Below are positions 49,094-49,431 of a stretch of 64,000 nt of DNA, piece by piece; position 1 is the stretch's first letter, and each line of letters begins with the position of its first letter. The stretch is from an archaeon (GTDB lineage Archaea; Nanobdellota; Nanobdellia; Woesearchaeales; GW2011-AR9): NCBI GenBank assembly GCA_018696395.1, contig JABHQR010000017.1:39094-103093 (forward strand), given 5' to 3'. The notes beneath the pieces are model-generated. The model was not told the origin of the DNA. It was given only the letters and a program-made list of their open reading frames with translations, and ran no database searches. The position numbers and the translations under genes are program-made.

Positions 49094-49165
49094 TTAACAG
49101 TGAATACAATCAGTGCCTTGCACCTTAGCCTCTAGTTTTTTCCTTTTTTTTGTTTCGTATGTCAT
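49094..49165 (-). CDS. Candidate 23-aa peptide MTYETKKRKKLEAKVQGTDCIHC
   Basis: Hand-translated ATG-to-TAA ORF ending in the 16-bp repeat. Confidence 0.3.
   Translation of the reverse strand: MTYETKKRKKLEAKVQGTDCIHC
49097..49112 (+). repeat. 16-bp direct repeat copy 1 (ACAGTGAATACAATCA)
   Basis: Exact match to 49396-49411. Confidence 0.9.
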
Positions 49166-49224
49166 TTTATTTTTTCTCCCATGTTTATAGTCTCTTTGAC
49201 TTTTTCATTTTTTTGATGTTTGAG

Positions 49225-49297
49225 GGCCATAGGCGGGAATTGAACCCGCACCATCAGATCCACAGTCTAATATGCTAACCATTACACTACTATAGCC
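49225..49297 (-). tRNA. tRNA-His (GTG), AT-rich divergent copy, encoded G-1
   Basis: GGCTATAG...TTAGA-CTGTGGA-TCTGA...GCGGG-TTCAATT-CCCGC-CTATGGCC folds into a full cloverleaf. Confidence 0.9.
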
Positions 49298-49389
49298 ATG
49301 AAAAGAAATTGTAACAATGAGTGGAGCTTACGCTCTATAAATGATAGTGTTTAGAATTTAACTTTTTAGATTTAAAATTAGTAGAAACT

Positions 49390-49431
49390 TCACTGACAGT
49401 GAATACAATCAACTCTGGTTTGTGTTATCAT
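49390..49431 (-). CDS. Candidate 13-aa peptide MITQTRVDCIHCQ
   Basis: ATG lies 23 nt after a TATA box, in leaderless position, and the ORF ends in the 16-bp repeat. Confidence 0.3.
   Translation of the reverse strand: MITQTRVDCIHCQ
49396..49411 (+). repeat. 16-bp direct repeat copy 2 (ACAGTGAATACAATCA)
   Basis: Exact match to 49097-49112. Confidence 0.9.

Follow-up and report, generated by a model that had tools for sequence, protein, structure and literature searches.

Bacterial release factor 2, encoded by prfB, is autoregulated by a +1 frameshift at CUU UGA C, with a Shine-Dalgarno-like stimulator 3 nt upstream. We describe here a short archaeal sequence cassette for which the prfB frameshift would be the closest analogue. 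Both combine a short frame-0 ORF that ends soon after the site, an NUU P-site codon whose following base permits a +1 slip, a Shine-Dalgarno-like element (in the cassette a putative one, 2-3 nt upstream) and an A-site codon that is slow when its decoder is scarce, as we suppose for the cassette. In both, the +1 product restores the scarce decoder, which would here be HisRS and tRNA-His. Unlike in prfB, the A-site codon of the cassette is a sense codon, His or Pro, rather than a stop codon, so that the sensed species would be an aminoacyl-tRNA. The cassette furthermore belongs to uncultivated archaea, is portable before many genes and occurs in tandem cascades. We consider it likely that the system parallels the prfB frameshift with a sense codon as its A-site signal, and that it senses His-tRNA (or Pro-tRNA).

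Other recoding sites share parts of this design. In the yeast element Ty1 (CUU AGG C), a P-site tRNA also slips by +1 on NUU with a slow sense codon in the A site. Ty1 uses a constitutively rare tRNA to fix a product ratio, whereas the codon of the cassette matches the controlled pathway, which implies physiological sensing. Antizyme (UCC UGA U), a polyamine sensor, is likewise a regulatory +1 frameshift employed as a metabolite sensor, and differs in its ligand, domain of life and type of A-site codon. A nascent-peptide contribution is possible in antizyme (PMC4505036); by analogy, such an effect might account for the conserved ..RVDCI of the cassette. The frameshifts induced in the laboratory at 'hungry codons' (work of Gallant and Lindsley, cited in PMC8211752) share the slip mechanics proposed here.

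Attenuators offer a different comparison. The hisL leader of the his operon and the pheM leader of pheST place a short ORF with cognate codons upstream of biosynthetic or aminoacyl-tRNA synthetase genes, and the +1 leader of the cassette likewise ends in two to four His codons beside a hairpin. Unlike in these leaders, no alternative terminator and antiterminator hairpins with a U tract were detected with the cassette, its first sensor would be a single codon in the other frame, and some of its targets are fused to it directly. T-box riboswitches also report tRNA charging through a cognate codon upstream of synthetase or amino-acid genes; the cassette differs in having no Stem I, T-box sequence, antiterminator or Rfam match, and its conserved start and stop codons point to the ribosome as the reader. 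A 2021 review of archaeal recoding gives no more than one proven cellular frameshift, a -1 event in fucA1, and in its treatment of recoding attenuation is not mentioned (PMC8211752). Our literature search returned no description of the present system, and no amino-acid-responsive cis-regulation in Archaea by attenuation, T-box or leader peptide.

A conserved repeat around tRNA-His

The window, a stretch of 64,000 nt from a Woesearchaeales archaeon (family GW2011-AR9), has a G+C content of 30% and introns in two of its tRNAs, which mark it as archaeal; homologues of one neighboring gene bear the name Candidatus Woesearchaeota. The genome measures 1.38 Mb in 24 contigs. A sequence-only reading had reported a 16-bp direct repeat around a tRNA-His gene. 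The repeat is real: within the window, the 16-mer ACAGTGAATACAATCA has exact copies at 49097-49112 and 49396-49411 and only there, and none of 100 dinucleotide-preserving shuffles of the window contained two matches (shuffle mean 0.08). Between the copies, ARAGORN and Rfam place a tRNA-His(GTG). Read along the minus strand, the locus comprises in turn a mini-ORF, tRNA-His, a second mini-ORF, a 306-aa ORF (hereafter p306), an Asp/Glu-type racemase gene and hisS. That both copies stand in frame at the end of ATG mini-ORFs, as first read, is also confirmed. The features of the locus, all on the minus strand, are as follows.

49454..49461 (-): TATA box TTTAAATA of the leaderless first mini-ORF, its 3' end 22 nt before the ATG
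49390..49431 (-): uORF1-A, frame 0, MITQTRVDCIHCQ*; ATG, frame and early stop conserved
49404-49402 and 49401-49399 (-): P-site codon ATT and proposed sensor codon CAC of uORF1-A
49396..49411 (-): repeat copy 2, a dual-frame cassette, TGATTGTATTCACTGT
49335..49412 (-): uORF2, the +1 frame leader (TTG)-IVFTVSEV...KHYHL*, with His codons at its stop codon TAG (49337-49335)
49324..49335 (-): small hairpin GAGC-GUAA-GCUC with a 4-bp stem, abutting the uORF2 stop codon
49224..49297 (-): tRNA-His(GTG) with encoded G-1, the copy syntenic with hisS (49224-49296 by ARAGORN and Rfam)
49176..49180 (-): Shine-Dalgarno sequence GGGAG of the second mini-ORF, 10 nt before its ATG
49094..49165 (-): uORF1-B, frame 0, MTYETKKRKKLEAKVQGTDCIHC*; class B peptide ..LEAKAQxSADCIHC conserved
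49105-49103 and 49102-49100 (-): ATT and CAC codons of uORF1-B
49097..49112 (-): repeat copy 1, proposed frameshift site of the p306 gene
48112..49101 (-): p306 in the +1 frame, linker plus annotated ORF
47349..48122 (-): Asp/Glu-type amino acid racemase
46084..47352 (-): hisS, histidyl-tRNA synthetase

A second, GC-richer tRNA-His(GTG) is found at 50495-50567 (-), only 71% identical to the copy at 49224-49296 (-). In relatives, it is the AT-richer gene that shares synteny with the leader and hisS, and several of these relatives also have another copy close by.

The 16-mer TGATTGTATTCAYTGT, allowing at most one mismatch, was found in 62 of 114 genomes and 39 of 58 genera of the family, with a reversed control near zero. 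An order-wide sample had it in 132 of 401 genomes, and a phylum-level sample that includes sister orders in 181 of 401; both tallies comprise the unpublished genomes G295, G586 and G664 as match counts only. In sister orders, the peptides MTRVDCIHC* and MARVDCIH* are encoded ahead of tRNA-His and hisS. DNA searches matched the upstream copy with its surroundings in many genera, where the alignment contains a TATA box, an ATG, the sequence ..ACACAAACCAGAGTTGATTGTATTCAYTGT and then a stop codon. Several genomes hold two or three spaced copies, like the window. A scan of genome contigs for a 15-mer gave mostly chance bacterial matches and one relevant Nanoarchaeota record. An ORF of TrhO-like rhodanese type containing ECIHCG (L030) was set aside as a chance match with one mismatch.

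We distinguish two classes of cassette, of which the window carries one each. Class A peptides have 9-14 residues of the form M-x-x-(Q/K)-T-R-(V/S)-D-C-I-H-C-(x)-stop and are followed by tRNA-His and hisS. The distance from the TATA box (TTTAWATA, 7-8 of 8 positions) to the ATG is 22 nt in 27 of 40 relatives, as in the window, and 21-23 nt in 36. This spacing indicates that class A mini-ORFs are leaderless, and so upholds what had been suggested for the first ATG of the window. Class B peptides have 19-50 residues and end in ..LEAKAQxSADCIHC(xx)-stop; GGAG or GGAGG stands 8-11 nt before the ATG and there is no TATA box, which is also lacking upstream of the second mini-ORF of the window (49165-49094). 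The uORF1s of proC type carry GGAG or GGAGG at this distance as well.

A search for the repeat and for synonymous variation in related genomes, proposed in the sequence-only reading, yielded both. In class A, DCIHC is kept while Arg is encoded by AGA, CGG or CGA and His by CAC or CAT. Loss of the ATG or of the frame among orthologues would have spoken against a translated leader; ATG, frame and stop are instead retained in about 80 loci, ahead of tRNA-His, hisS or genes of His biosynthesis. Other bases hardly move. A T precedes GAT in all 44 class A cassettes, more than codon bias would give; the codon ahead of GAT is always GTT for Val, AGT for Ser and GCT for Ala, codons with a genome usage of 55%, 31% and 40%, respectively. 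The Ile codon in the proposed P site is always ATT in class A. Within the motif, only the third position of the His codon varies often; a change there is silent in frame 0 and alters the amino acid in the +1 frame. We also observed that CAC, the rarer His codon, is over-used at this position (19 of 44 class A and 12 of 14 class B cassettes, versus 17% genome-wide).

A second reading frame through the repeat

The sequence-only reading overlooked that the 16-mer can also be read in the +1 frame. In this frame the motif is xTG ATT GTA TTC AYT GTN, or (M/L/V)-I-V-F-(T/I)-V. Coding of the motif in both frames accounts for the exact identity over 16 nt. Open stretches in the +1 frame span 20-454 codons overall (median 34.5) and 20-97 codons in class A.

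The class A +1 ORFs end in His codons (..HHR*, ..HHHL*; ..KHYHL* in the window). At least two His residues fall within the last six in 30 of 44 of these ORFs, and His makes up 0.2% of their other residues, for 1.7% in the proteome. Of 28 cases, 26 have their first downstream CAYCAY in phase with the +1 frame. The hairpin at the uORF2 stop shows GC-to-AU compensatory changes in two pairs, and CCACAU separates it from a U-rich stretch. This 4-bp hairpin at the stop codon was the only one detected in the leader, in which no terminator/antiterminator pair was found; the predicted fold of the full leader was not significantly more stable than that of shuffled sequences (z = -0.23). Rfam searches at gathering thresholds, over the window and 15 related loci, returned only tRNA and 5S rRNA. 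In the minimum-free-energy structure the motif pairs to a stretch ahead of the tRNA, a pairing that is not conserved, and readings of the conserved pieces as a C/D-box sRNA, split-tRNA leader or acceptor minihelix did not fit the box and pairing patterns. The sequence TTTYTCTAGTT after the class A mini-ORF stop (49365-49389 (-) in the window) is conserved across genera and reads F-S-S in the +1 frame; it may act as peptide, as a U-rich terminator or in some other way.

In many genera (loci L046, L050, L048, L014, L007, L329-L339) the +1 ORF is open through the entire tRNA-His gene and ends at or near the start of hisS. This arrangement implies that, on some transcripts, the tRNA-His sequence may be translated. 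Several leader-associated tRNA-His genes contain introns (L038:1590-1745; L048, L049, L053), and the L038 gene, missed by ARAGORN and Rfam, seems to bear an insert in its T arm.

The +1 frame of class B and related copies enters a racemase, a HisG-like protein, hisG then hisD, hisS, a 56-aa ORF or p306; in other genera, a cassette's +1 frame runs directly into the racemase gene. Cassettes may also be chained: some second cassettes, such as that at L038, have no ATG for their frame-0 ORF, which can be reached only from the +1 frame of the first. The conserved 56-aa ORF (..LVEQLERKRYLD...TYTF..YK*) was observed between a class B cassette and hisS in eight genomes (L234-L241; for example, L046:1886-2053). 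It frequently lacks a start codon: none is present in the whole 58-codon open frame of G070, and G107 is likewise devoid of one. Joined to its uORF (P0001), the 56-aa ORF had no Pfam or NCBIfam match and was not found outside the family.

The p306 family provides a comparative view of the same junction. In the window, a linker at 49101-49033 (TVNLNLDFTRNKY...KKIF) joins in frame to the annotated ORF MGFGYNP... (49032-48112). Homologues of p306 were detected in 12 of 401 genomes of the order, each from another family, always with racemase and hisS downstream; distant Woesearchaeota share the gene order p306, racemase, (M15 peptidase), hisS. In 14 of 15 p306 loci, from different families, the frames meet at NUU-CAY (AUU, CUU or UUU followed by CAC or CAT), and a linker of nearly constant length (about 22 codons) precedes MGFGYNP in frame. 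This linker, conserved at protein level with the consensus xLD(I/V)xxNxY..P..LF in the 12 alignable shifted loci and with synonymous third-position changes, extends back to a TTC overlapping the NTT-CAY of the upstream ATG ORF. Where the motif drifts, what persists is NUU, then C, then CAY. The +1 extension contains no ATG, GTG or TTG in six p306 loci, including that of the window. In one case, G502 (L308), the p306 homologue is a single unshifted ORF starting from ATG, and its N-terminal part aligns with the linker.

No Pfam family matches p306. The structure predicted for 48112-49032 (-) has a pLDDT of 90.8, and its best PDB matches are TyrRS catalytic domains (TM about 0.5-0.56). The model thus suggests a TyrRS-like, class Ic aminoacyl-tRNA synthetase fold, with an invariant Y-L-P-L-E. 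Cyclodipeptide synthases share this fold; no cyclodipeptide synthase chain was present among the listed PDB matches.

Histidine and proline versions

We searched for GATTGTATTNNNTGT in the family, and for its one-mismatch variants in the order. Only versions with CAY or CCN at the variable position close ATG mini-ORFs. Other codons at this position, for Phe, Cys, Leu, Ser, Thr, Asn, Val, Ile and Gln in the family and for Tyr, Asp, Asn, Leu, Arg and Gln in the order, proved to be chance matches in larger ORFs or membrane proteins.

The variable codon matches the neighboring pathway. Among the His cassettes, 65 of 77 have tRNA-His, hisS, hisG/D/I or the p306-racemase cluster within 2.2 kb. Seven of 13 Pro cassettes precede proA, proB or proC (tblastn), and one more (L173) precedes a proB-like gene (NCBIfam). 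No His cassette was found beside pro genes and no Pro cassette beside his genes among these 90 non-redundant cassettes, a tally of phylogenetically related loci to which no formal test was applied. The best-supported genes that DCI-Pro-C cassettes precede or are fused to are a proB (293 bits) and a proC with proA (258 and 575 bits), all above cut-offs; weaker proB- or proC-like genes accompany other such cassettes. Direct +1 fusions involve proB (the 293-bit case), hisG followed by hisD, proC, the racemase and hisS. The junction of the Pro cassettes is NUU-CCU.

On contig C21, the genome of the window itself has one further related copy (G000:C21:1600-2270; locus L005:1410-2270), which carries CCT where the repeat has CAC. 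Its frame-0 mini-ORF, MEYQEF...TSDCIPCQR*, has a GGAGG Shine-Dalgarno sequence, and its +1 frame, GTG-IVFLVKDK-IISIIGAGSLG, forms the N-terminus of one of the weaker proC-like genes. Two other loci (L174:1950-2080 (-) and L177:1560-1720 (+)) present two tandem Pro cassettes followed by a conserved stretch AGCACGACGCRATGAAGCAATTCYTAGGGGGTGAAC and then an ORF of about 70-90 aa that belongs to no known family and has no evident link to proline.

We consider it very probable that the repeat is an amino-acid-specific cis-regulatory cassette. The sequence-only reading had offered, as one of its alternatives, a His-sensing leader before hisS or RiPP-like substrates: the leader was right in substance, whereas the substrates find no support, the identified neighbors being tRNA-His, hisS, the racemase and his or pro genes.

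A proposed frameshift and its rivals

We propose that both repeats of the window are probably programmed +1 ribosomal frameshift cassettes, acting at NUU-CAY and sensing charged tRNA-His. A ribosome would begin at the mini-ORF ATG, without a leader on the first mini-ORF and through a Shine-Dalgarno sequence on the second, and would reach ...GAU UGU AUU CAC U. There, tRNA-Ile would occupy AUU in the P site and the A site would present the His codon. When His-tRNA-His is plentiful, CAC would be decoded, Cys read, and translation stopped within 0-2 codons. When it is scarce, the ribosome would wait, the P-site tRNA could slip from AUU to UUC, and reading would continue in the +1 frame. Established wobble rules predict that a G34 tRNA-Ile, tRNA-Leu or tRNA-Phe would pair with UUC after the slip. 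From copy 2, the +1 frame would yield a 25-codon leader with His codons at its end, against the small hairpin just before tRNA-His; from copy 1, it would yield the p306 protein, followed by racemase and hisS. The second-tier His run and hairpin may affect read-through, or may protect the transcript as it runs into tRNA-His and hisS. The mini-ORF peptide is probably not the product that matters.

Observations that count for a frameshift include the conservation of both frames, the match of sensor codon and pathway, +1 frames without any start codon, the NUU-CAY junction of distant families, and the unshifted homologue. The ribosome entry signals, whether a TATA box at 22 nt or a Shine-Dalgarno sequence, belong to frame 0, which favors a shift over a second start. 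A possible stimulator is GAGxUGAU, complementary to the 16S 3' end (..GGAUCACCUCCU) and ending 2-3 nt before AUU; the pairing is of modest strength, and other families have GGU or GAU 0-3 nt before the junction in its place. Some points fit the frameshift model less well. The flanking Cys codons and the conserved Asp-Cys before the sensor agree with it only loosely, and it does not account for the conserved TTTYTCTAGTT or for the His run with its hairpin. The insignificant fold of the leader, in which no terminator/antiterminator pair was detected, does not speak for it either. That tRNA-His is not rare here, with two genes in the genome, counts against it, and, if p306 consumes aminoacyl-tRNA, its induction under scarce His-tRNA is not obviously sensible.

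The main rival, which we regard as unlikely, is control by overlapping uORFs without any shift. Here the +1 frames would start at xTG (TTG, GTG, ATG, or a GTG one codon upstream), or by re-initiation after the mini-ORF stop, which lies about 20 nt downstream, and translation of the His- or Pro-containing mini-ORF across the start would set its use. The +1 frames are indeed not all without a start: in class A, 38 of 44 copies offer TTG or GTG as the xTG codon, with the invariant T at -1, and many class B copies have a GTG one codon upstream (GTG-CTG) with AAGG or CAGG about 9 nt before, a possible weak Shine-Dalgarno sequence. Independent +1 initiation is therefore possible for many copies. Furthermore, proC has ATG or GTG at this point, proB TTG and hisG GTG, and a +1 ORF of G188 stops on the ATG of proC, an indication that stop-start coupling is used in these loci. 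Such initiation does not account for the six p306 loci, the 56-aa ORFs of G070 and G107, or L174 and L177 (codon GGG), all lacking a start codon, and it leaves unexplained why NUU followed by C is kept where the remaining motif drifts. The expected direction of regulation also differs. Stalling at the sensor would leave the ribosome over any start 6-8 nt upstream, and starvation would then shut the genes off, the wrong direction for proBAC, hisG and hisS. Only the shift would give more HisRS, tRNA-His, HisG and ProBAC when the cognate aminoacyl-tRNA is short.

The very high nucleotide conservation, synonymous sites included, might instead reflect an RNA- or DNA-level site in which the frames are incidental: the 16-mer would bind a regulator, or tRNA-His would be recognized in T-box fashion with CAC as specifier. 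The fixed context of CAC or CAU, and a Pro version that swaps this triplet only, would suit such a site. We nevertheless hold it to be quite improbable, since different orders retain the ATG, the frame and the early stop of frame 0 although their peptides differ in length, Arg codons show two-base synonymous changes, and 3-nt indels and differing lengths leave the +1 frame open. The lack of a riboswitch match in the Rfam searches and of a significant fold in the leader argues in the same direction, and nothing observed calls for the repeated protein-binding site that had been suggested. Functional micropeptides, either Cys/His metal-binding peptides or RiPP precursors, could explain the conserved C-terminal DCIHC and the ..LEAKAQxSADCIHC shared by class B peptides. 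They would not explain why the central residue becomes Pro exactly where the neighbors are proline genes, nor why sister orders may stop right after His (MARVDCIH*) and thus lose the second Cys; Pfam scans of the neighbors revealed no peptide-modifying family, and we judge this reading highly improbable. Finally, direct repeats bracketing a second, divergent tRNA-His are what a target-site duplication or att scar from insertion of the 299-bp tRNA-His segment would leave, as had also been proposed. This origin is almost certainly wrong: single, double and triple copies occur in dozens of genera with unrelated sequence between them, there is no integrase, the repeats do not overlap the tRNA, and every copy shares its frames with an upstream and a downstream ORF of its own.

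Returning to the +1 frameshift cassette, we see about equal grounds for and against a wider proposal, in which DPANN archaea of this class would possess a portable sense-codon frameshift cassette as a general sensor of aminoacyl-tRNA supply. It would exist at least in His and Pro versions, often in cascades of two or three steps, and in many genera would lead ribosomes across the tRNA-His gene itself, coupling translation on one transcript to maturation of the tRNA and to expression of hisS. The cassette is short (about 16 nt) and modular, and thus suited to direct reporter testing. If the proposed shift is correct, the p306, racemase, proB, proC and hisG genes of these genomes are probably annotated from incorrect starts or with part of the N-terminus left out, and short conserved ORFs that have no start codon escape annotation altogether. 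The cassette would then represent the first conserved family of cellular +1 frameshifts in Archaea and, as a sense-codon counterpart of the prfB switch, a new principle of amino-acid sensing.
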